Part shown: positions 3,240 through 21,917 of the stretch, one piece after another
Numbering within the stretch: position 1 is the first letter of the stretch
How the letters are laid out: each line of letters begins with the position of its first letter
Assembly (NCBI GenBank): GCA_963697745.1
Contig: CAVOPD010000018.1
Coordinates: forward strand, 229,515-261,514
Source of the DNA: an uncultured Acidobacteriota bacterium
GTDB taxonomy: Bacteria; Acidobacteriota; Vicinamibacteria; Vicinamibacterales; CAVVIG01
Reading direction: 5' to 3'
DNA: 32,000 bases
The notes under the pieces: model-generated
What the model saw: only the letters and a program-made list of their open reading frames with translations
Told to the model about the DNA's origin: nothing
The model's database searches: none
Translations under genes and position numbers: made by a program

Positions 3240-3620
3240 TCAGCCGAGCTTGTGGCAGAAGCCGTAGTGGATGGCGATCTGGCCGTTCCGCATGTTCCAC
3301 GCGTCGCCCACGACCCAGCGGCCGGTGTTCGACGTGAAGATCGCCTGGAACGTGATCGAATTGTCCGTTTCGGCGAAGTCGTAGAGCGACTCGATGTTGA
3401 TCGAGCCCTGCGCCGCTATGTAGATGTGAAAGAACTTCTTCAGTTCCTCGCGCCCGCGCAGGATGTGTGCAGGCGGCTTTCCCGGGATGATGTCCCACGG
3501 CGAGATGTGCAGGCAGTCTTCCGTGTACTGCGTGTCGATCATCTCGTCGAGCTTGCCGGCACCGATGAGCGCCATGTGATCGTCGAAGAACTTCCGGCCC
3601 GGTGTGATGGTAGTGGCCAC
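3240..3620 (-). CDS. SnoaL-like / NTF2-fold small protein
   Basis: GTG at 3618-3620 preceded by GGAGGAGCAC. 126 aa: VATTITPGRKFFDDHMALIGAGKLDEMIDTQYTEDC...FTSNTGRWVVGDAWNMRNGQIAIHYGFCHKLG*. It forms the 3' part of the composite 921-aa ORF 3240..6005. Intact. Confidence 0.7.
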   Translation of the reverse strand: MATTITPGRKFFDDHMALIGAGKLDEMIDTQYTEDCLHISPWDIIPGKPPAHILRGREELKKFFHIYIAAQGSINIESLYDFAETDNSITFQAIFTSNTGRWVVGDAWNMRNGQIAIHYGFCHKLG

Positions 3621-3694
3621 GTGCTCCTCCTGTCGCGAATGGGTGGATGGGCGGCGGGAACGCCCCGTCGCCCGTGCTGTAAGCGTCTGAGTGG

Positions 3695-4547
3695 TTATCC
3701 CGCGATTGATTTCACCGCGCGCAGCACGGCCCGTGCAGTCAGCACGCGAACGAGATGGGTGCGGTAGACCGTGGACCCGAACAGGTCCGAGCGTACCGTC
3801 TGTCCCTCGGCCGCACCGGCCGCCGCCGCCTTCACCGACGCGTCCGACGGCTTCTTGCCCTGGAGCGCCTGCTCCACGCGACGCCAGGCGCACTCCTCGT
3901 CCGGTGGCGCCGACCAGGCCGATCCGGACCGCGCCGATCGAGCCGCTGGCGTCCAGCGTCACGGACGCCGCCACACCGACCAGTGGCGACAGCGTTGCCG
4001 GGTGGCGCTGCGTTTCGTACACCACCGTGCTCTTCGCTACGGGCGGCGGCAGGATGACCGCGGTAATCACCTCCGCGCGTTCGAGGCCGGCGGCCAGAAG
4101 ATCCTCGACCGCGACGTTTCGCGAACCCGCCGCGCCGGTGATCTCGACCGAGGCGCCGAGCGCAATGAGCAGCGCGGCGAGGTCGGTGTCGCCCGAGGTC
4201 GAACCGGCGAGGCTGCCGCCGATCGTGGCGCGATTTCTCGTCTGCGCATCGCCCGTCAACAGGACCGCTGCGGCCAGCGCCGGATAGCTCTTGCGCACGG
4301 CGTCGCTGGCGGCAAGCGCCCGCAGCGTCGTCATCGCGCCGATCTTCAAGCCGCCTCCGGCGGGTTCGATGGACGACAGCCCGGGAACCTTCCTGAGATC
4401 GACCAGCATCGACGAGGCGATCCTGGCGCGGGACGGCCCGACCAGCAGGCCGCTTCCGCCCGCGAGGACGCGTGCGGAGGGGTTCGCCGTAAGCAGCGCG
4501 ACGGCGTCGGAGAGACTGAGCGGAGCGGCGTATCCAGCAGATGTCAT
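3695..4547 (-). pseudogene. FAD-binding medium subunit (CoxM/XdhB-like) of a molybdenum hydroxylase, one frameshift as assembled
   Basis: ATG 4547: MTSAGYAAPLSLSDAVALLTANPSARVLAGGSGLLV...IGGSLAG...VILPPP. The C-terminus continues in ORF 3695..3877 (..EQALQGKKPSDASVKAAAAGAAEGQTVRSDLFGSTVYRTHLVRVLTARAVLRAVKSIAG*). The frame changes near 3878-3900. The start lies 2 nt after the large-subunit stop. Confidence 0.8.
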
Positions 4548-4549
4548 GG

Positions 4550-6937
4550 CTACCTCTGCATCACCTGCCAGATTTTCTCTGGCGTGACGGGAATGTCGAT
4601 GTGCTGCACGCCGATGTCCGACAGTGCGTCGCAGATGGCGTTCACGATGGCCGGCGCGACGGCCGGCTGACAGACGTCGCCGGCGCCCTTGGCGCCCATG
4701 CCGTTGATCGGCGTCGGCGTCACCGTGCGTTCGAGATCGGAAGTGCGGGCAGTCGCTCGCGCGCGGACCGCATAGGTGCGTCAGGTCGCGCGTCAGCAGG
4801 TTGCCGTCGTCGTCGTAGACGACCTGTTCCATCAGCGCTGGCCCGAAGCCGAACGCGACGCTGCCGTGCATCTGTCCTTCGACGATGCGCGAGTTGCCGA
4901 CGATTGCCGACGTCGTCCACGCACGACGTATTCGACGACGTCGACTTCGCCGGTCTCGTTCGTCGATTTCGACGAGTCGCCACGTGCGAGCCGAAGGGAA
5001 AGTTGAAATCGGACGGGTTGAAGTACTCCGTCGCCTCGAGACCCGGCTCGACACCGGGCGGCAGATCCCACGCGAACCAGAGCCAGGAGGCGATGTCCTG
5101 CAGCGATCTTGCTCTGCGCCGGATCCTTCTTGAGCGACACCTTGCCGTCCTCGAAGACCACGTCGTCTTCCGAGGCCTTCAGCATGTAGGCGCCGACCTT
5201 CAGCGCCTTGGCCTTGATCACCTGCGCGGCCTGATAGATGACGGCGCCCTCGACGCTGAACGTGCGGCTGCCGTAGCTGCCCTGTCCGAAGGGCACGCCG
5301 TCGCGTGTCGGAGTGCCGGATCTCGACGCGATCCACCCGACGCCGAGTTCCTGCGCGATGATCTGCGAGAAGGTCGTCGGTCTGCCCCTGGCCGTGCGGC
5401 TGGCTGCCGGTACGACCGTGACGTCGCCCGTCTGGTGGACGCGCACGCACCGCGCTGGCCCACGTGCTGCCGATCAGGCCTTCGCGACCCATGCGCGGCG
5501 AGGGACCGACGCCGGCGATCGCACATGTAGGAGCCGATGCCCAGGCCGAGGCGCTTGCCGCGCGGCCGCGCGCTTCCTTCTTCATGTCGGCCAGCTTGTC
5601 GTACCGGCCATTTCCAGCGCGCGATCGAGCGCCGGCACGTAGTTGCCGGTGTCGTAGGTCCAGCCCGAGCCCGTTCTCGTACGGGAACTGCTCCGGGCGG
5701 ACCATGTTCTTGCGGCGCACGTCGGCGGGCGACATGCCAATCTCCCGCGCGAACGCCTCGAGCAGGCGCTCGATGAGGAGCATCGCTTCCATGCGGCCGG
5801 CGCCGCGGGCCGGTCCGAGCGACACCGTGTTGGCGAAGGCGAGGTTAGCCTCGTAGAACGGATGCGGAATCGCGTACGCGCCGGTGACGCTGCGGCCGGT
5901 CAGCACGAGCGGCGCGCCGGGACCGTTGCTCGCGGAGTAGGCGCCGAGGTCGACGTTGTTGGTGCACCGACAGCGCGGTGATCGTGCCGTCCTTCTTGCC
6001 CGCAAGCGTCGCGTGCTGCTGCTGTCCGCGGCTGTGGACCGTCGTGACCGACAGCCCTTCGCGCGTGTCCACCCACTTGACCGGCCGTCCGACTTCCTTC
6101 GCGAGGAAGAGCATCAGCGGCGCGTCCTGATACAGGTAGCCCTTCGAGCCGTAGGCGCCGCCGATCGCCGGCACGATGACCCGCAGCTTGTTGTAGGGGA
6201 TGCCCATGACCAGGTTGCAGATCATGAAGCGGTTGCCGTGCGGGAATCTGGGTGTTCGTGTAGAGCGTGTACTCGCCGGTGCGCCCGTCGTACTTGCGCC
6301 ATCGTGGCGCGCGTCTCGAGCGGCTGATGGAGCTGGCGCGGGATCGTGATGTCGAGCTGGACCTTGACGTCGGCGCTCGTCGATCGCCTTCTGCGGTCGC
6401 GGCCTTGTCGCCGTACGTCCACGTGCGCGCACAGGTTGCCGGGCACCGTCTCGTGCAGCTGCGGCGCGCCGGGTTCAGCGCGTCCTCGGCGCGCGCCACC
6501 GACGGCAGCGCTTCGTAGTCGACTTTGATTGCCGGCAGCGCCGCGTACGCCTGGTCGCGCGTCTCGGCGACGACCGCGGCCACCCACTCGCCGACGTAGC
6601 GGACCTTGTCGGTGGCCAGCTGCCGTCTGCGATCCGGGCAGCCCGTACGGGTGTGGCGCGAAGTGGCTCTCGACACCGGCCGGCTTCCAGATGCAGACCA
6701 TCGGCACATCATCTTGCCCGCGAGGTCCGCACCGGTGAAGACGCGGACCACGCCCGGCATCTTCGGCCGCGGCGGAGGTGTCGATGCTCTTGATGCGTGC
6801 GTGCGGATGGGGCTGTGCAGGATGGCGACGTACGTCGTCCCCGGCAGGGTGATGTCGGCGGTGAACTTCGATTCGCCGCGAAGGAACTCGGGGTCTTCGC
6901 GACGCTGGATGCGGATGCCCAGGATTCGATTCGCCAT
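4550..6937 (-). pseudogene. molybdopterin-binding large subunit (xanthine dehydrogenase / CoxL family), heavily frameshifted as assembled
   Basis: ATG 6937 with GGAGGA upstream: MANRILGIRIQRREDPEFLRGESKFTADITLPGTTYVAILHSP.... Recognisable family segments are scattered over all three minus frames. Examples: HARIKSIDTSAAAE; MPGVVRVFTGADLAGK; LATDKVRYVGEWVAAVVAETRDQAYAALPAIKVDYEALP; IPRQLHQPLETRATMA; GEYTLYTNTQIP; HGNRFMICNLVMGIPYNKLRVIVPAIGGAYGSKG...GRPVKWVDTREG; LGPARGAGRMEAMLLIERLLEAFAREIGMSPADVRRKN; GSQPHGQGQT; FSQIIAQELGV; GQGSYGSRTFSVEGAVIYQAA; VEIDE/TGEVDVVEYVV; IVEGQMHGSVAFGFGPALMEQVVYDDDGNLLT. The last frame ends PEKIWQVMQR* with TAG at 4550-4552. I trace at least 15 frame changes. Confidence 0.85.
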
Positions 6938-12236: not shown

Positions 12237-14394
<2,158 letters not shown>

Positions 14395-14431: not shown

Positions 14432-16664
14432 ATGGACGTGAAGAATTCGCTTTCGGACACGACAGTAGGAACAGGGTTCGCGTTCTCGGACACGATTGCC
14501 GGGTACGTCTCCGGCGTTGATACAGACCGCAACGGATTCCGCGTCACCACGTCGGACGGCCGGGAATTCCCGGTCCGGTTCTCGGCCGCCTGCTACGCGG
14601 AACTCGCGCGCAACCTCGGGCGAGTCGTACATCGACTGCACGGGCCAGATGCGCGACATGCTGCAGCCCGGGCCGCTTCCTCTACGCCTACGGCGTGTTC
14701 TATCCCGACGTGGCGCAGGGGCTCGAAGCCGAGCACGTCATCTTCGTCGGCCGCGGCCCGACCGAGTTCGTGTTCGAGAAGCCGGACTGGTGGGTCCACC
14801 AGATCCAGGAACTCGGCAACTTCTACTTCCGCGCGCAGTTCGGCGACGGTCCCGTCGACTATCGGAACTACCGCACGATGCTGGACCTCTATGGGCGCAA
14901 GATCGAGGCGACGCGGCAGGAAACCGACACCATCTCGCGCCTGATCTTCGGCTTCGCCTCCGCCTACCTGCTCACCGGCGACGAGCGGTTCCTGACCGCG
15001 GCCGAAAAGGGCAGCGACTACCTGCGCGAGCACTTCTGTGCGGTCGACACGGCGGAGGACACCTGCTACTGGTACCACGCGGTGGACTTCGCCGAAGCCA
15101 AGGGACGGAAGGTGCTCGGCTCGAAGATGGCCGAGATTCCCGGCATGCGTCGTTCCGGCCAGGCCTCCTCGCGCGAGCGGAAGATGCTGTCGTCGGAGTT
15201 CGGCGACGACTGGGATGCCATCCCCGCCTACGAGCAGATCTACGCGCTCGCCGGCCCCACGCAGACCTACCGCATCACCGGCGATCCGAAGATCCGCAAG
15301 GACATCGATCGCACGCTGAACATGTTCAACAAGTACTACCGCGACTACGAACAGGGCGGCTACTTCTCGCACATCGACCCGGTCACCTTCAATCCGAAGG
15401 CCGATTCGCTGGGCCGCAACCGCGGTCGCAAGAACTGGAACTCGGTGGGCGACCACGCGCCCGCGTACCTGATCAACCTGGTGCTCGCCACCGGCGAGGC
15501 GGCAGCACGAGGAGATGCTGATCGACACGGCGACCACGATCGCGACCAGGCTTCCCCGATTACGACAACAGCGCCTTCGTCCAGGAGAAGTTCCACGAGG
15601 ACTGGAGCCCCGACCGCGAATGGGGCTGGCAGCAGAACCGCGCGGTGGTGGGCCACAACCTGAAGATCGCGTGGAACCTGATGCGCATCCAGCATCTCAA
15701 GGCGGACGATCGCTACGTCGCGCTGGCGGAGAAGATCGCCGGGCTGATGCCCAAGCACGGCGGCGATCCGCAGCGCGGCGGCTGGTACGACGTCGTGGAG
15801 CGCGCGCTCCCGCCTGGACAGAGCGTGCACCGCTTCGCGTTCCACGATCGCAAGGCGTGGTGGCAGCAGGAGCAGGGCATCCTCGCGTACCTGATCCTCC
15901 ACGGCTCGCTCAAGAAGCCGGAGTACCTGAAGCACGCGCGCGAGTCGTCGGCGTTCTACAGCACGTTCTTCCTCGATCACGATTCGGGCGCGGTGTACTT
16001 CAACGTGCTCGCCAACGGCATGCCGTACCTGCTCGGCACCGAGCGGAACAAGGGCAGCCACTCGATGAGCGGTTACCACTCGTTCGAGCTGTGCTACCTG
16101 GCGGCGGTGTACACCAACCTGCTGATCACCAAGCAGCCGCTCGACATGCACTTCAAGCCGAAGCCGGGCGCGTTCAAGGACAACATCCTGCGCGTCGCGC
16201 CGGACATCCTGCCCAAGGGCAGCATCAAGATCGAGTCGGTCACCGTGGACGGCAAGGACTACACGGATTTCGACGCCGATGCGCTCACCGTCACCATCCC
16301 GCAGGCGGACGAGGCGGTGAAGATCGTCGTCCGCATCGCGCCGACCGAGGGTCTGTCGCACTTCTCGGCTCACGTCAAGGTGGACAAGAACGTGGCGACG
16401 CTCACGCTCGTCGGTGATGCCGACCACGTGTCGTTGCCGTACCTCCAGTCGGCGCTGCAGGAAGTGATCGCCGCGCAGCCCAACTCGCTGGTCATTCGCG
16501 CCAAGGATCTCAAGACGTTGTCGCCGGCCGCCGTACGCGCGCTCATCTTCGGCAAGCAGAAGCTGCGGACGGATGAGGACGTCGAGGTGATCGGCGCCAA
16601 CCAGACGGTGAAGGACGCGCTGAACGCGAGCGAGTTCGGCGAAAGCATCAGCTTCTCCAAGTAG
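14432..16664 (+). pseudogene. AGE-superfamily (N-acylglucosamine 2-epimerase-like, alpha/alpha6 barrel) protein with beta-sandwich and STAS-like C-terminal extension, about 4 frameshifts as assembled
   Basis: ATG 14432. Plus-strand frames run a, b, c, a, b (a = frame of ORF 14432, b = frame of ORFs 14496 and 15645, c = frame of ORF 14695). Changes lie near 14630, 14680, 15505 and 15560. Segments: ..AELARNLG; ESYIDCTGQMRDMLQPG; RFLYAYGVFYPDVAQG...TDTISRLIFGFASAYLLTGDERFL...GGYFSHIDP...WNSVGDHAPAYLINLVLATGE; EMLIDTATTIATR; FPDYDNSAFVQEKFHEDW...VVGHNLKIAWNLMRI...GGWYDVV...KAWWQQEQGILAYL...KGSHSMSGYHSFELCYLAAV. The last ~100 aa (VATLTLVGDADHVSLPYLQSALQEVIAAQPNSLVIRAKDLKTLSPAAVRALIFGKQKL..DVEVIGANQTVKDAL) look STAS/anti-sigma-antagonist-like. 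Confidence 0.7.
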
Positions 16665-16690: not shown

Positions 16691-16730
16691 GAAGGCCGCC
16701 GGGCGCCAGCCGGCGGCCTTCTTTCGTTTC
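16691..16730 (+). terminator. intrinsic terminator after the AGE-like gene
   Basis: GAAGGCCGCCGG gcgccag CCGGCGGCCTTC: perfect 12-bp stem, followed by TTTCGTTTC. Confidence 0.75.
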
Positions 16731-16731
16731 G

Positions 16732-18192
16732 ATGCGCTATGATCTGAAACGCTTCCCTTTCCAGATGGCGCACGACGTATTCATCAGCTACGCATCCAGA
16801 GACAAGGTCGCCGCGGATGCAATCTGCGACGGCCTCGAGCGACGCGGTATCCGGTGCTGGATCGCGCCGCGCGATATCGTCCCCGGGGTCCCGTGGGCGG
16901 AGTCGATCATCGACGCCATCGAAGGATCGGGCGTGATGCTCCTCATCTTCAGCGATGCGTCGAACAAATCGGTGCAGGTGCAGCGCGAGGTCGAGCGGGC
17001 CGTGCACAAGGCGGTCGCCCTCGTCCCGCTGCGCATCGAGAACGTGATGCCGACGCGGACGATGGAGTATTTCATCAGCTCGCAGCACTGGTTCGACGCC
17101 ATCCAGCCGCCGATCGAGCAGCACCTCGAACGCCTGGTTCAGGGGATCACGGCACACCTGGTGCGCCGCTCCAGCAATGCACCATCGGTGTCACCGGCGC
17201 CCGCAGCCAGCGGGCCGGCCGCTGCAGTTCCCGAGAGGCCCGCCGCTCCGGTGTCCGGCGCCGTCGCCCCGCCGATACCGGTGCCCGCGTCTACGCCGAC
17301 CTCCGCGCCGGCGCCGACCCCGCCCCTGCCGATCTGCCGCCGGATGAACCGTTCGTCATCGGAAGCTACGAACTGGGGCGGGTCATCGCCACCGGGCGGT
17401 TCGGCAGCGTGGTCTACGCCGGCACGCATCGGCTGCTCGGGAGTCCAGTGGCGGTTCGGGTGTACCGGCCGACCGAAAAGGACAACAAGGAAGCCGTTCG
17501 CGCCAGATTTCTGCGTGAGGCGCGGGCGCTGCAGGTGGTCCATCCGAACATCATCCACGTCCGCGACTTCGGCGAGACCAGCGAGTTGATGTACGTGGTG
17601 ACCGATCTGCTGGCGGGAGTCAGCCTCGGGGAACTGGTGCGCACTGGACGGGCGCCTCGCGATCGACAAGCTGAATCAGTTCGTCAGGGAACTGAGCGAC
17701 GCCACCGCTGCCGTTCACGCGCACGGCGGGTTCATCTCGGGACTGCACCCGGAAATCGTGCGTGTGGTTCGGGAGAAAACCGAGCGCCTGGCGATCTCGT
17801 CAGCCGGCATTGGCGGCATGCAGGATCTGCTCGCCACCATGAACGAGGCGACGTTGCGCGGCCAGGTCGCGCCGAACGAGTTGTCCTACGTCGCGCCGGA
17901 ACTGCTCATGGGCAACGCCGCCGATCAGCGCGCCGATGTCTTCACGATCGGCGCGTTGATGTACTACATGGCCACGGGCCGGCCCCCATACGTGGCGGAG
18001 TCGTTCCCGCAATTGCTCGGACGGATGCTCAGCACCAAGCCACCCGACGTGGGCGTCGAGCGGCCCGACCTGGGTGCCGAGGGTGCCGCCACGATCATGC
18101 GCTGCATCACCGCGGACGCGCAGCTGCGGTTCGAAACCGCGGCCGACGTGTCAAAGGCGTGGCTCACGGCCGTCCCCACGGCTGCGCCGTAG
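16732..18192 (+). pseudogene. TIR domain - Pro/Ala-rich linker - degenerate Ser/Thr protein-kinase-like domain fusion, two compensating frameshifts as assembled
   Basis: TIR: (MRYDLKRFPFQ)MAHDVFISYASRDKVAADAICDGLERRGIRCWIAPRDIVPG..WAESIIDAIEGSGVMLLIFSDASNKSVQVQREVERAV. The linker is SPAPAASGPAAAVPERPAAP.... The kinase N-lobe sits in a second frame from ~17320 to ~17650 (YELGRVIATGRFGSVVYAG..VAVRVY...FLREARALQVVHPNIIHVRDFGE..MYVVTDLLAG). The C-lobe returns to the first frame (LNQFVRELSDATAAVHAHGGFISGLHPEIVRV...LAISSAGIGG...SYVAPELLMG...DVFTIGALMYYMATGRPPY), ending at TAG 18190-18192. Alternative start ATG 16765. Confidence 0.75.
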
Positions 18193-18236
18193 TCATCAGT
18201 CACAAGTTATCAGTCGCAAGTCGCAAGGCAACAGCC

Positions 18237-18280
18237 GCGCACGTGTGCCCTCCTGCATTTCGTGCGCTTCTGCGCTTTCT
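18237..18280 (+). terminator. weak candidate terminator in the convergent intergenic gap
   Basis: GCGCACG (18237-18243) pairs with CGTGCGC (18261-18267) across a 17-nt loop, followed by TTCTGCGCTTTCT. The large loop makes this weak. Confidence 0.3.
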
Positions 18281-18296
18281 GCCTTGACTGCGGTTC

Positions 18297-20168
18297 TTAC
18301 CCAGAGTGCGGTACTTCGAGCGGGCGCTCGCGGTGCAGCAGCACCCAGTCGCCATTTTCCTCGAGCGCTTCCTGGCCAAGCTCCCGCAGCAGGGCCGACG
18401 CCTGCTCCATGTCGCCGCGCGTCAACTGTTCGGCCAGGTGGGACTGCGCGGCATCGAACAGTTCACTCATTCGACTGAACTGCTTCGCGTGCTCCGACCG
18501 CGCCATCTGCTGGTTGTAGCCGTGACGAAGGCCCGCGGTGACCGCAAGTGTCACGATGGCAATCATGATCACGCCGTGAACCCACGGGTCCTCCACCCAG
18601 TGCTTGACCGCCTCGAGTTCGTGCACCGGAACGAGCAGCGGCACCGTCAGCACGAGCGCCAGCAACAGCGCCAGGGCGACGCTCGATCGCACCAGCCACT
18701 CGATTTTCCCCTCCTCGGCTTCGAGCGTGGCCTGTTCACGCCTCGCCTTCGACGCCAGGTAGTTGCGCTGCTCGCTGACCCAGTGGCTGGCCACGTACTC
18801 GAGCCGTGCGGGACTGGGCGCCACCTGTGCCTCGCGCAATTCGTAGGCCTGTGACTCCGCGTCCCAGGCCCGCAGGGCGTTCCGGATCCATTCCAGGGCA
18901 CCGCGCTGCTTGCGCAGGTAGTGGTCCACGACCTTCTCCGACACGCCCGCAACGTGCCAGAAGAACTGGATGCGCAGCGCCTCGGCCAGGGCGCGGTAGT
19001 CCTGGTGCTTGTTCTGGTAGTCCTGTTCCTTGACATCGCGGTGGATCCAGTAGCTCGCGACGATCGACGATCCGAGGAACAGCAGCAGCAGCCAGGGCAA
19101 CGCGAGCAGCCGTTCGCCAAGCGACGGGTGCTCGGGCAGGTGCGCGTGAGGCAGTGAATGAAACAGATTGAAGAACAGTGCCGAGATGAACACCCATCCG
19201 AACAGCTTGCGCGACGCTGCGCGGGTGTTGCCCGCGAAATGGAGTGCGAGCGTGTCGGCGACGGCGTAGTGCTCGAGGGTGATTCGTGCGGAATGCGGCA
19301 GTGACAGGATGGCGTCGGTCAGCGTGCTTTCGCTGACCTGCAGCAGCTGCGCCTTGCTCGTGGCGCGGCTCGCCGCCATTTCATCGTGGAAGTGGAGCGC
19401 GTCCTCGTTGAACTGATCCATCCAGTCCTGCAGTTCCTGGAACGATGCCGCCGACTGTCGCGTCGGCAGCAGCAGCGTGCAGGTCAGCGCCTGCGGCGGC
19501 ACCGGTTCGCCGATGCGCGGGGTCACGATGTGATACACGGGTCCACTGCTGGAGAAACTCAGCGGACTGCCAGTCGGCTCGTACCCTGTTGGAATGCCTT
19601 CGAGCCGGAACCGCACCACTTCTCCGGTGCCGCCGACCTTGTCGGCGCGCCCCGATCCGTTGACGCCGTCCCACAGTGCGAGGAACACCTGGCTCTGGCG
19701 GGCAATCAGGGCGCCCACCTGCGCATACTGCCGGTTCCTCTGCTCCCCATGCTGCGCGATCCCGTCGTCGGTGTTGCCCGACATGAGCGGCAGGACGTAG
19801 GAGCTCTCCGCGACGGCCAGCATGCGCCTGAACTCGTCGCGCGACGCATCGCTCGAGAAGTCCTGCTCGTAGAGGTGATGCTCGAGCGGTAACGGAACGA
19901 CGAGGCGGACCCCGAGTTCGAGCGCCACGCGCGCGACCAGGCGATCGCTCCCCTCAGCCAGCGGCGACAGGAGCAGCAGCGACGTATGCGGATGTGATTC
20001 GCGCACGTCGGCAAGCAGCCGTCTCACGATTCCTTCCAGGGGCGGCAGGTCTTCCGGCCGGATATCCCGGTGTCCGGTGACGCCGATGACAATCGGCAGC
20101 GGTCCTGGCGTCATCCCGCTGGACGACGCGGCGGCGCTTTTTCGGGCGAGCGTGTTCATGCACCCCAT
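18297..20168 (-). CDS. SLOG-type (SMF/DprA-LOG-like) nucleotide-binding domain fused to two 2TM hairpins (SLATT-like); function unknown
   Basis: Intact 623-aa ORF. N-terminal Rossmannoid signatures: PIVIGVTGHRD (res 25-35), LSPLAEGSDRLVARVALELG (res 68-86, DprA-like G.D..A) and ALWDG...KVGGTGEVV (res 164-185, LOG-like GGxGT.E). Hydrophobic hairpin 1 is LFGWVFISALFFNLFHSL...LLALPWLLLLFLGSSIVASYWI (res ~321-375, nt ~19044-19208). Hairpin 2 is WLVRSSVALALLLALVLTVPLLV...VHGVIMIAIVTLAVTAGL (res ~490-547, nt ~18528-18701). Each is preceded by an amphipathic helix (e.g. WVSEQRNYLASKARREQ). The start is 21 nt downstream of the K+ channel stop. Confidence is high for the CDS itself and lower for the domain call. 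Confidence 0.65.
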   Translation of the reverse strand: MGCMNTLARKSAAASSSGMTPGPLPIVIGVTGHRDIRPEDLPPLEGIVRRLLADVRESHPHTSLLLLSPLAEGSDRLVARVALELGVRLVVPLPLEHHLYEQDFSSDASRDEFRRMLAVAESSYVLPLMSGNTDDGIAQHGEQRNRQYAQVGALIARQSQVFLALWDGVNGSGRADKVGGTGEVVRFRLEGIPTGYEPTGSPLSFSSSGPVYHIVTPRIGEPVPPQALTCTLLLPTRQSAASFQELQDWMDQFNEDALHFHDEMAASRATSKAQLLQVSESTLTDAILSLPHSARITLEHYAVADTLALHFAGNTRAASRKLFGWVFISALFFNLFHSLPHAHLPEHPSLGERLLALPWLLLLFLGSSIVASYWIHRDVKEQDYQNKHQDYRALAEALRIQFFWHVAGVSEKVVDHYLRKQRGALEWIRNALRAWDAESQAYELREAQVAPSPARLEYVASHWVSEQRNYLASKARREQATLEAEEGKIEWLVRSSVALALLLALVLTVPLLVPVHELEAVKHWVEDPWVHGVIMIAIVTLAVTAGLRHGYNQQMARSEHAKQFSRMSELFDAAQSHLAEQLTRGDMEQASALLRELGQEALEENGDWVLLHRERPLEVPHSG

Positions 20169-20189
20169 GCGGAGCAGTGTGCTGGGTGC

Positions 20190-21917
20190 TCATGCGTTGT
20201 TGTATCGGTGCGCGGTAAAACCGGCGCGATTGAGGAAAAACGGCAATTGCCGCACGGAACTCCTGTTCATTTCCCGGGCCGCTTCATCGAGCTGCCCCCA
20301 CGGAACGAGGTTCGGGTTGGTCTTCTTCTGCGGATCGCGCGGTCCTGGCGTCCAGCCGAGGGCGCGCCTTTCAGCGAGCCACCTCTCGTGTTCCATTTCG
20401 GCCAGTCGCTCGATTTCTTCAGGGGTGAACGCAAACGAGTCCGCATCGAGCGCGGTCAACGGCACGATGTGGCAGCCGGCGATCTCGAGCTTGGTGGCGA
20501 TATGGTCCGCTTGCGTGCGGCTCGACTCCTTGAGCTCGATCGGCAGATCGTCCCACGGAACCGCCGCGGGATTGCCCTCGATCGACGCATGCGTGAGGTA
20601 ATCCTGGTGCAGCGCTCTCGCGAGAACCTCGTTCGTTCCGCGGAGCACGAACTCGGGCCGGCAGGCCTGTTCGAGCAGGCTGAACACCCGCAGCTGCGGC
20701 AGACCTCGATTGCCATTCGGACCCACCGCGCGCAGCAGCGCCGCCAGGCCGGCTTCCCGGTTCATCCGCACCACCACCGGCACACCGAATCGTCCGAGGT
20801 GGTTCAGGAGCAGGAGCGCGGTCGACAAGGCGAGGCCTTCGTCCTCGAGGCACACATACGCATAGGTGACGACGCACTGGCCCGACTCATCGAAAAGAAA
20901 AGCCGCGCGCTGGAACTCGGTCGAGTGCAGATCGATCGATGCCGCGTGCATCGTGGCCAGCGCATCGAGCTCGGGATGGCGATGATGCAGGTCGAGAGTG
21001 ACCTGCTCGGTGGCCGCGTCCACCAGCGTAATCGGGATCGGCGGTCTCGTCGCGCCTTCGACATCCTGCCACTGACGCACCATGTGGCGGATCAGGTGCT
21101 GGCTCAGAGGACCAGCGCCGACGATCAGGACGTGCGGCGGCGAACTGCGCTCGCGCTGTTGTGCGGTGAAGGGCGAGTATTTCGCCAGCAGGGCCCGTGC
21201 GCCAAGCTCGGTCACATTGAAGAACTCGAGACGGAATCCATCTCGCGTACCGACGTCCCAGCTGCGTAGCGCGTACCACAGATGCGGGTCCTGGATTTGC
21301 GTCGAACAGGAGAGGCTCTGACCTCGCTGCCGCGACAGCGCCCGCGCCTGGGCGGCAATCTCGACGTTGTTCGCGTCGGTGCCCGCGACGACGACCAGGT
21401 GCTTTGCGCGATCGAGACGGGCGCGCCGCAGCACTTCGACGCGCGAGGCGTCGCCAACCAGGACGGCGGCTCCCGCCTCACGGGCCGCGGCAATGTGCGG
21501 ATTCTCCTCTGTCTTTTCGATGGCCAGCACCTGGTACCCGTCGCGTCGGAACGCCTGCGTAAGGAGCACGCCCATCGCGCCGAGGCCGCAAATCACCACG
21601 TGACCGTTGACGCGCCTGATTTTCAGCGCGTCGAGCCGATCGAACTTCACCAGGTATGCGGCCACCGCCGCGGTGAACAGGCCGAGCGCTCCGATTCCGC
21701 TGAACATCAGGAACGCCCCGAAGACGCGTCCCATCGGCGTGATCGGGAAGTAGTCGCCATAACCAACAGTGGTGACGGTGACGACCGCCCACCAGAGCGC
21801 GTCACCGAAGCTGTCGATGTTCGGGTTACGTCCGAATTCAGCGGCGTAAAAGCCGACGGCGCCCGTCAGGACGACGAGCGCGACAAGACCAAGGACGTAG
21901 GCAAGATACGACCGCAT
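20190..21917 (-). CDS. 2TM K+ channel - RCK/TrkA-N - second Rossmann-like domain - tandem RyR-like repeats
   Basis: Intact 575-aa ORF. TM1, pore helix, selectivity filter TVGYGD (TVGYG at nt 21756-21770) and TM2. RCK: HVVICGLGAMGVLLTQAF (GxGxxG). Second Rossmann-like domain: HVLIVGAGPLSQHL. The C-terminus IERLAEMEHERWLAERRALGWTPGPRDPQKKTNPNLVPWGQLDEAAREMNRSSVRQLPFFLNRAGF fits the RyR-domain pattern (LA..HE.W......GW..G......K..P.LVP...L.E......R..V..LP..L...G). It is preceded by a more divergent copy (LARALHQDYL...VPWDDLPIELKESSRTQADHIATKLEIAG). Confidence 0.85.
   Translation of the reverse strand: MRSYLAYVLGLVALVVLTGAVGFYAAEFGRNPNIDSFGDALWWAVVTVTTVGYGDYFPITPMGRVFGAFLMFSGIGALGLFTAAVAAYLVKFDRLDALKIRRVNGHVVICGLGAMGVLLTQAFRRDGYQVLAIEKTEENPHIAAAREAGAAVLVGDASRVEVLRRARLDRAKHLVVVAGTDANNVEIAAQARALSRQRGQSLSCSTQIQDPHLWYALRSWDVGTRDGFRLEFFNVTELGARALLAKYSPFTAQQRERSSPPHVLIVGAGPLSQHLIRHMVRQWQDVEGATRPPIPITLVDAATEQVTLDLHHRHPELDALATMHAASIDLHSTEFQRAAFLFDESGQCVVTYAYVCLEDEGLALSTALLLLNHLGRFGVPVVVRMNREAGLAALLRAVGPNGNRGLPQLRVFSLLEQACRPEFVLRGTNEVLARALHQDYLTHASIEGNPAAVPWDDLPIELKESSRTQADHIATKLEIAGCHIVPLTALDADSFAFTPEEIERLAEMEHERWLAERRALGWTPGPRDPQKKTNPNLVPWGQLDEAAREMNRSSVRQLPFFLNRAGFTAHRYNNA

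Follow-up and report, generated by a model that had tools for sequence, protein, structure and literature searches.

Domain architecture of the three genes

The stretch of DNA analysed here, referred to as the window, comprises 32,000 nucleotides of an uncultured soil acidobacterium of the Vicinamibacterales (assembly GCA_963697745.1, contig CAVOPD010000018.1, positions 229,515 to 261,514), and coordinates given without a locus number count from its first letter. It contains three adjacent genes: a TIR-pseudokinase gene (16732-18192, plus strand), a gene whose product combines a SLOG domain with four transmembrane (TM) helices, termed SLOG-4TM (18297-20168, minus strand, 623 residues), and a gene for a K+ channel with RCK and RyR domains (20190-21917, minus strand). 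An earlier note on this DNA, made from the sequence alone, had named these domains and suggested that the three genes lead from a nucleotide signal to membrane effectors. All three genes were recovered with the domains named by an open reading frame (ORF) check and Pfam searches, and homologues of the SLOG-4TM gene recur beside TIR and RyR genes in other genomes. Of the two outcomes that the note had named as speaking decisively against its idea, an unsupported SLOG fold and a lack of recurrent linkage, neither occurred. The features of the locus are listed in Table 1.

In 16732-17589, Pfam TIR_2 was matched at residues 16-135 with E = 9e-24 (84.7 bits against a cut-off of 28). The glutamate proposed earlier as catalytic is E86 in the motif QREVERAV; it is the invariant TIR glutamate, is kept in the aligned TIR domains beside homologues and aligns with the glutamate of the TIR domain of oyster TIR-STING. 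This suggests a TIR domain of the NAD-cleaving type with a catalytic-type glutamate and predicted activity. PADLOC and NCBIfam models gave weak matches to ThsB and ThcB4 only, far below the cut-off. The kinase-like domain fused to the TIR domain is degenerate, as had been noted: the intact orthologue at locus L002 (471 residues) carries VAVR for VAIK, HGG for HRD and SAG for DFG, and since it thereby lacks the VAIK lysine, the HRD aspartate and the DFG aspartate, the domain is a pseudokinase.

As assembled, the TIR gene of the window contains two frameshifts, which the earlier note had described and which tblastn with the L002 protein located: within the kinase N-lobe (17307-17696), about 290 nt lie out of frame, and the TIR frame has stops there. 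Two frameshifts with in-frame stops, together with the complete lack of a TIR gene in the relative L034, would fit a decaying relic, in which the TIR protein is truly frameshifted and makes no signal while the channel and the SLOG-4TM protein act independently or no longer work. We regard this explanation as unlikely, because the TIR-pseudokinase is intact in the close relatives L001-L003 and L081 (471-529 residues), the shifted segment retains 72% protein identity to its orthologue, and two adjacent conserved metabolic genes upstream, one isoamylase/GlgX-like (12237-14394) and one GlcNAc-2-epimerase-like (14456-16658), are likewise each split into three frame pieces, pointing to a locally error-prone assembly. 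Given that these two genes are broken alike and the close relatives are intact, the frameshifts in the TIR gene are probably assembly errors. A further ORF in the window (3240-6005) has Mo-cofactor and FAD domains in an odd order; together, this ORF and the two split genes point to an error-prone assembly stretch or to local gene decay.

Taken alone, the SLOG-4TM protein of the window matches the Pfam family YAcAr below threshold, with E = 0.038 and 14.3 bits where 28.2 would be required. Among 40 homologues, YAcAr was found in 19 (best E = 5.5e-5), DUF4231 in 24 and SLATT_3 in seven; the best E-values for DUF4231 and SLATT_3 ranged from 1e-5 to 2e-4, and the window protein itself matched neither. 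DUF4231 is presumably grouped with the SLATT families. An AlphaFold2 model of the protein reached a predicted local distance difference test score (pLDDT) of 90.9 and a predicted template modelling score of 0.89, and its top fold matches in the PDB, obtained with Foldseek, were DprA, ShosA, TRPM4 and TM1055/LOG, with probabilities mostly of 0.97-1.0 (TRPM4, 0.63). Model, fold search and family-wide Pfam matches support the SLOG fold that had been predicted, here for residues ~20-235. The earlier note had suggested fold comparisons with ThsA and TRPM2: TRPM4 is among the top matches, which belong to the SLOG superfamily, and ThsA is not in the top 50. The family profile found nothing significant among PDB sequences.

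Invariant in the SLOG domain of the family are T31, G32, H33, R34, S68, G73, D75, W166, G168, G179 and T181, which appear from the sequence to lie at or near strand ends, the usual ligand site of Rossmann-like domains. A LOG-type hydrolase role was considered and is unlikely; the glutamate of the PGGxGTxxE motif is not conserved, the motif here being GGT-x-x-x-V, and a sensor role is therefore likelier than a hydrolase role. The two 2TM hairpins that had been proposed are visible both in the sequence and in the model. Each is preceded by a long helix, a SLATT-like layout with TIR genes adjacent, and alignment of the second-hairpin region with a genuine SLATT_1 neighbour protein by hhalign was weak (E = 0.003, probability 10%).

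The SLOG-4TM family is large and conserved. At 90% clustering, the proteins scored number more than 1,235. A library clustered at 50% identity holds 3,075 clusters when E <= 1e-30 is required and 7,593 when the limit is E <= 1e-10, and identity across phyla amounts to 35-45%. Fusions of TIR and SLOG-4TM were sought among the longer family members, in which Pfam found no extra domains. A divergent SLOG protein with four TM helices and ~660 residues was observed at L166:9141-11129 and also at L085, L087 and L109; the family profile recognises its SLOG part alone, and its ...RKPLVLPG tail is similar, so that the architecture reaches beyond the core family.

The channel gene lies on the same strand as the SLOG-4TM gene, its stop codon 21 nt before the SLOG-4TM start, and encodes the TVGYGD filter, RCK and tandem RyR domains read from the sequence before. 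Pfam matches are Ion_trans_2 (4e-18), TrkA_N (3e-18) and RyR (7e-13; 49.1 bits, cut-off 27.4). In the fold search, its AlphaFold2 model (pLDDT 88.1) best matched GsuK (E = 7.5e-13), a K+ channel with tandem RCK domains that was solved with NAD and ADP bound. When the RyR region was compared with PDB sequences by phmmer, the Repeat12 domains of the animal receptors RyR3, RyR1 and RyR2 were retrieved with E-values from 7e-18 for RyR3 to 1e-16. An H-x-x-W motif is kept in this domain, H510 being invariant and W513 present in at least 90% of 40 homologues. Most channel or RCK-RyR relatives have a degenerate filter (e.g. LQSGG) in place of TVGYG.

Table 1. Features of the TIR, SLOG-4TM and channel genes in the window
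Feature	Position	Strand	Residues	Basis and remarks
Terminator-like GC-rich hairpin	16691..16721	+		12-bp stem with 10 GC pairs, then T-rich tail; between epimerase-like and TIR genes
TIR domain	16732..17160	+		Pfam TIR_2; Glu86 codon 16987-16989; likely true start Met12 at 16765
Pseudokinase N-lobe	17307..17696	+		Other frame than TIR; tblastn of L002 (residues 174-306 in frame 3, rest in frame 1); Pkinase profile positions 1-100
Pseudokinase C-lobe	17629..18192	+		TIR frame again, up to stop codon; kinase match 17629-18180
Near-invariant C-terminal cytoplasmic helix and tail (ENGDWVLLHRERPLEVPHSG)	18297..18401	-		Invariant G598, E600, L602, W608, L611, H612, R613, R615, P616 and P620 in 40 homologues
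Second 2TM hairpin	18513..18686	-	~495-552	Follows conserved W-x-x-x-Q-x-x-Y helix; sequence and model
First 2TM hairpin	19041..19217	-	~318-376	Hydrophobic helices in sequence and model; DUF4231/SLATT_3 matches in homologues
Cytoplasmic SLOG domain	19464..20105	-	~22-235	Motifs GVTGHRD, SPLAEGSDRL, ALWDG, GGT; AlphaFold2, Foldseek and family YAcAr matches
C-terminal tandem RyR (Repeat12-like) domain	20199..20627	-	~431-573	~140 residues; Pfam RyR
Tandem RCK/Rossmann domains	20628..21608	-	~104-430	First with dinucleotide motif ICGLGxxG; TrkA_N
2TM K+ pore with TVGYGD selectivity filter	21633..21917	-	1-95	Ion_trans_2; filter kept in 9 orthologues

Recurrent linkage of SLOG-4TM, TIR and RyR genes

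The gene neighbourhood was assessed in 79 SLOG-4TM loci from species-representative genomes, in which TIR ORFs were identified by an iterative profile search of the locus ORFs. The loci belong to Acidobacteriota, Verrucomicrobiota, Armatimonadota, Eremiobacterota, Chloroflexota, Planctomycetota, Bacillota, Pseudomonadota, Gemmatimonadota, Ignavibacteriota and others. A TIR gene is present in 38 of them, from more than ten phyla, and where at least 3 kb of flank is available on both sides it lies within 3 kb in 32 of 54 loci. The distances are short: of the 42 TIR ORFs, 29 begin no more than 500 bp from SLOG-4TM, and only five lie beyond 3 kb, a zone with ~576 kb of flank, corresponding to a roughly 40-fold enrichment close to SLOG-4TM. 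Chance adjacency, considered as an explanation, is ruled out by this distance distribution. The partner TIRs mostly belong to one subfamily (MAHDVFISY...CWIAPRD...REVERAV) and are 50-64% identical to the window TIR across phyla, with C-terminal parts comprising pseudokinases, a single TM helix with an extracytoplasmic domain, TM with TPR, TM with WD40, and STAND ATPases.

The 79 loci include 15 with RyR-domain ORFs, 17 in all, of which 14 begin no more than 500 bp from SLOG-4TM. Eight of the 17 encode a channel-RCK-RyR protein directly upstream on the same strand, six a small standalone RyR protein and three a large protein with a C-terminal RyR domain. The linkage to both TIR and RyR genes that the earlier note had put forward for testing is thus recurrent, and it also emerged from the reciprocal direction. 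Among 80 metagenome loci of channel relatives, many of them on short contigs, TIR ORFs were found in 25 and SLOG ORFs in 11; where at least 2 kb is available on both sides, a TIR or SLOG gene lies within 2 kb in 14 of 22. About 20 of the TIRs at these loci are 40-58% identical to the window TIR and represent its subfamily.

On four long contigs with gene calls (L166-L169), the TIR gene stands directly beside the gene of the RyR protein in every case. L166 combines the channel with the divergent SLOG-4TM protein and a TIR protein carrying DUF8082, and L167 a small RyR protein, two TIR genes, a HAMP protein, the channel and SLOG-4TM fragments. In the latter locus, SLOG-4TM is present downstream of the channel only as two fragments (L167:8730-9838), a pseudogene or an assembly error. 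The other two loci have no SLOG-4TM gene: a TIR gene precedes an RCK-RyR gene at L168:5811-8737, beside recA, recX and rny, and a CHASE2-TIR gene precedes an RCK-RyR gene at L169:5212-8845. The RyR protein of these two-gene modules consists of a 2TM region with a degenerate filter, two RCK domains and the RyR domain.

The convergent orientation of the TIR gene, a caveat of the earlier note, applies to the window; at L071 and L165 the order is TIR, HAMP protein, channel and SLOG-4TM, all co-directional, so that convergence is not general and the caveat is weakened. A Tll0287-like/HAMP protein of ~290 residues without an output domain was seen at L009:35-919, L071:5203-6069, L079:6456-7253, L165:7183-8070, L166:12070-12960 and L167:6053-6922. 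In these six loci its gene lies directly upstream of the channel (at L079 upstream of SLOG-4TM); the window has no such gene. The protein may serve as an accessory sensor.

Several other neighbours were observed beside SLOG-4TM. In three loci of Blastocatellia type (L010:1713-3569, L161:7918-9876, L163:7957-9921), a protein with TPR-S, MAP3K_TRAF_bd and Guanylate_cyc domains is encoded directly upstream on the same strand, so that a further type of nucleotide-making enzyme lies nearby; in the same loci a protein of ~900-1000 residues with Pkinase and TIR_2 domains is encoded convergently downstream. Standalone RyR proteins of 95-144 residues are encoded beside SLOG-4TM or TIR genes at L015:7188-7622, L021:6548-6835, L039:1015-1314, L045:5557-5955, L061:7163-7498, L072:9778-10155 and L167:3648-3938. 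DUF4062-NACHT-TPR genes occur in five further SLOG-4TM loci. Two loci of Ignavibacteriota without a TIR gene carry another, shorter K+ channel-like gene (~290 residues) directly downstream of SLOG-4TM (L024:9846-10724 and L036:9789-10655), and a DUF4062-NACHT-TPR gene upstream of it.

With regard to the flanks, the terminator-like hairpin ahead of the TIR gene suggests that this gene is a transcription unit of its own. A sigma-70-like promoter was looked for around the locus and none was found; nor was any tRNA, Rfam family, meaningful repeat or mobile-element boundary detected there. Upstream of the TIR gene, the isoamylase and epimerase-like genes are found again in relatives among the Vicinamibacterales, whose proteins are 60-80% identical, and glgC is found again in L001. 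The same two genes were also seen to flank the module in distant metagenome-assembled genomes (MAGs; L165:788-4944 and L166:13134-15743), one of which is labelled Devosiaceae. The association with genes of glycogen-type metabolism is thus conserved. One relative, L003 (CALQBJ020000001.1), is titled a Bifidobacterium breve MAG, and its locus shows 76% protein identity to the GC-rich Vicinamibacterales locus of the window; this bin is probably mislabelled or contaminated.

Comparison with known TIR systems and RyR proteins

TIR signalling with membrane effectors is already known. In type I Thoeris, a SLOG domain senses 3' cyclic ADP-ribose (3'cADPR); in type VII, the SLATT effector ThsH responds to canonical cADPR, with ligand pockets between SLATT protomers; in type X, the effector is an ion channel; and operons with two effectors exist (10.64898/2025.12.03.692087). 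The window resembles type I (ThsB TIR plus ThsA SIR2-SLOG) in the proposed logic of a TIR that makes a signal and a SLOG domain that senses it. However, the output of type I is a SIR2 NADase and its TIR is the small standalone ThsB, whereas the window has a 4TM membrane domain and a TIR with large sensor fusions. Common to type VII and the window are a membrane-spanning SLATT-type effector and a TIR product as the proposed activator, but in place of pockets between SLATT protomers the window protein has a separate N-terminal SLOG domain fused to two hairpins, with weakly detectable SLATT homology. Type X likewise partners an ion channel with a TIR gene; its TIRs belong to the type II-like cluster 2598792572, and no RyR domain is mentioned in the paper or in its accessible tables.

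The closest counterpart is the predicted effector class '4TM SLOG' ('SLOG and 4TM') of Yirmiya et al. 2025 (10.64898/2025.12.03.692087, Tables S1/S2), which shares, at the level of domains, the two-gene logic of a TIR gene beside a protein with SLOG and four TM helices. As far as these tables are accessible, it differs from the window in comprising a handful of entries with one TIR cluster, 2691454909 (Nitrospira/Streptomyces type), which is not related to the window TIR subfamily. The accessible portions mention no RyR or channel partner. In Tables S1 and S3, as far as accessible, no motifs of the window-type TIR were found. A search with the TIR domain of Nitrospira listed in Table S1 retrieved six relatives, none of them the exact protein, and the one usable contig carried no SLOG gene beside the TIR gene. 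The statement of the earlier note that no named system has this trio therefore stands in part: the searchable literature yielded no paper in which TIR genes are linked to a channel or RCK protein of cellular origin with an RyR domain, but '4TM SLOG', type VII SLATT and type X ion-channel classes exist. What appear to be new are the size and breadth of the SLOG-4TM family, the dedicated TIR subfamily with receptor-like fusions and, above all, the RyR-domain channel partner. Novelty is moderate for the pair of TIR and SLOG-4TM and high for the link to the RyR channel.

The RyR domain occurs in animal calcium-release channels. In phages, the RyR-domain protein RyDEP cleaves 2'cADPR as well as 3'cADPR (PMC13232231, 2026 preprint), and RyR Tad binds 3'cADPR, 2'cADPR and cADPR with nM to sub-µM affinity (10.64898/2026.06.04.730250, 2026 preprint); the ligand pocket of the phage domains is built around an H-x-x-W motif (PMC13232231; 10.64898/2026.06.04.730250). 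The window channel shares with them the Pfam RyR/Repeat12-like fold and the conserved H-x-x-W motif. The phage proteins, however, are small soluble viral counter-defence proteins, whereas the RyR domain here forms the C-terminal end of an ion channel of the cell, or of RCK proteins, whose gene lies next to a TIR gene.

These activities raise the possibility that the RyR domains, and perhaps SLOG, degrade or buffer the signal and set a threshold, as host counterparts of RyDEP and RyR Tad rather than as gating sensors. Such a role would agree with the hydrolysis or sequestration of cADPR isomers by the phage proteins and with the standalone RyR proteins in seven host loci, which have no obvious effector part and might correspond, on the host side, to the cADPR sponges or glycosidases of phages. 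We consider it improbable, given that in the window the RyR domain is fused to a pore and an RCK gating ring, the usual place of a ligand sensor, and that the positions of the phage His/Asp pair appear to be Asn here, as in repeat 2 of animal Repeat12, a mapping that is approximate.

A putative relay with two membrane outputs

We hypothesize here that the TIR, SLOG-4TM and channel genes encode a Thoeris-like nucleotide relay with membrane-protein outputs, a reading to which we give somewhat better than an even chance. The TIR protein, once its sensor part is triggered, would turn NAD+ into an ADP-ribose-derived small molecule. The trigger would be sensed by the pseudokinase here and elsewhere by a TM helix with an extracytoplasmic domain, TPR, WD40, CHASE2 or STAND parts. 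As a first output, the cytoplasmic SLOG domain would read the signal, and the two SLATT-like hairpins would assemble or open to render the membrane leaky; as a second, the GsuK-like channel with its two RCK domains and its RyR Repeat12-like domain would read the signal, resulting in K+ flux and a change of membrane potential. The conservation of the H-x-x-W motif in RyR and the precedent for SLOG make the RyR domain of the channel and the SLOG domain of the 4TM protein two plausible receivers of one TIR product. The identities of the domains, their folds and conservation, and the gene linkage seen from both sides were observed directly; from sequence and by analogy with the known systems, we infer catalysis by the TIR domain, the identity of the signal, its binding by SLOG and by RyR or RCK domains, and the gating.

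The GsuK-like RCK domains could be an alternative receiver, sensing NAD+ or ADP-ribose. GsuK, the multi-ligand-gated K+ channel of Geobacter sulfurreducens, shares the 2TM K+ pore and the two RCK domains per subunit with the window channel, but lacks an RyR domain and is not known to have a TIR partner. Crystallisation of this best fold match with NAD and ADP in the RCK domain, the GxGxxG dinucleotide motif kept in the first RCK domain and the fact that many bacterial TIRs are NAD-depleting effectors would also fit a scheme without any cyclic signal, in which the TIR protein is a plain NADase and the RCK domains, with their GsuK-like NAD/ADP sites, and/or SLOG respond to a fall of NAD+ or a rise of linear ADP-ribose. 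This scheme leaves the recruitment of both RyR, a binder of cADPR isomers, and SLOG to the same TIR subfamily unexplained, and known TIRs that are paired with separate ligand-sensing effectors are signal synthases; we therefore judge it decidedly unlikely.

A more serious competitor keeps the same relay as a general second-messenger pathway rather than an abortive-infection system, in which the TIR domain is the output of environmental or envelope receptors and SLOG-4TM and the channel would tune ion flux and membrane potential reversibly. The partner TIRs often consist of an N-terminal TIR domain, a linker, a single TM helix and an extracytoplasmic domain, with one CHASE2-TIR, and genes for Tll0287/HAMP proteins and cyclases recur in the loci; these receptor-like TIRs, HAMP proteins and nearby cyclases fit environmental signalling at least equally well. 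The selective TVGYGD filter of the channel, the high conservation of SLOG-4TM across phyla, the isoamylase and epimerase-like (and, in L001, glgC) neighbours common to Vicinamibacterales relatives, housekeeping neighbours such as recA elsewhere, the lack of a PADLOC model and the near absence from viral contigs point in the same direction. On the other hand, SLATT-type proteins and TIR fusions with STAND, TPR or WD40 are typical of conflict systems, DUF4062-NACHT-TPR genes flank the module in five loci, caspase, CHAT and TIR-STAND genes do so in L165, and the distribution is patchy among relatives, with L034 devoid of the TIR gene. Weighing both sides, we regard a purely general signalling role as possible, though less likely than not.

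Several observations weigh against the relay proposed here, or at least against its use in defence. Classical defence genes are absent from the window and from most of the eight annotated loci, a small sample with housekeeping or regulatory neighbours, so that an immune role is not established; L165, where the caspase, CHAT and TIR-STAND genes follow the module, is the exception. As the earlier note had remarked, the channel and SLOG-4TM genes lie at the tail of a housekeeping-looking array and in no obvious defence island, the window also containing eno, gpmA, glgC, the isoamylase-like gene, Mo-enzymes and a TonB receptor. A search of 2.9 million viral contigs yielded a single, partial homologue, and the module is accordingly not carried by phages. 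Neither PADLOC nor NCBIfam has a model that the SLOG-4TM protein matches, the matches behind the SLATT assignment of its hairpins are weak, and the two '4TM SLOG' systems that the accessible tables of Yirmiya et al. report as tested in E. coli gave no phage defence. Neither a TIR nor a RyR gene is near SLOG-4TM in 21 of the 54 well-flanked loci, and the close relative L034 lacks the TIR gene. In the window itself, the TIR gene is frameshifted as assembled and convergent, and the RyR repeat has Asn at the (H/N)-P position, in agreement with repeat 2 of animal Repeat12 but unlike the phage binders, which have His there, again by approximate mapping.

The purpose of the proposed relay may be phage defence or another response to stress or the environment, and we lean slightly towards a role in conflict or immunity. 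A more specific proposal, which we advance tentatively and which may well prove wrong, is that the neighbouring TIR protein makes an ADP-ribose-derived signal which gates a GsuK-type channel by way of the RyR Repeat12-like domain at its C-terminus, and that, together with SLOG-4TM and the receptor-like TIRs (TM, CHASE2, pseudokinase), the channel represents a widespread TIR second-messenger pathway for membrane ion flux that is not necessarily confined to phage defence.

If true, the relay would provide a function for a large family of membrane proteins (~3,000 clusters at 50% identity and E <= 1e-30) that has no curated family, and would add ion channels to the outputs of TIR signalling in phyla with a thin presence in defence-system surveys, among them Acidobacteriota, Eremiobacterota, Armatimonadota and Verrucomicrobiota. 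It would furthermore offer a simple bacterial channel with a RyR Repeat12-type domain beside the enzyme that probably makes its ligand. The direct action of cADPR-type molecules on ryanodine receptors is a question of long standing, and a cellular RyR channel of this kind would allow direct electrophysiology. The window and its relatives would then hold a prokaryotic version of the long-debated link by which cADPR acts on ryanodine receptors.

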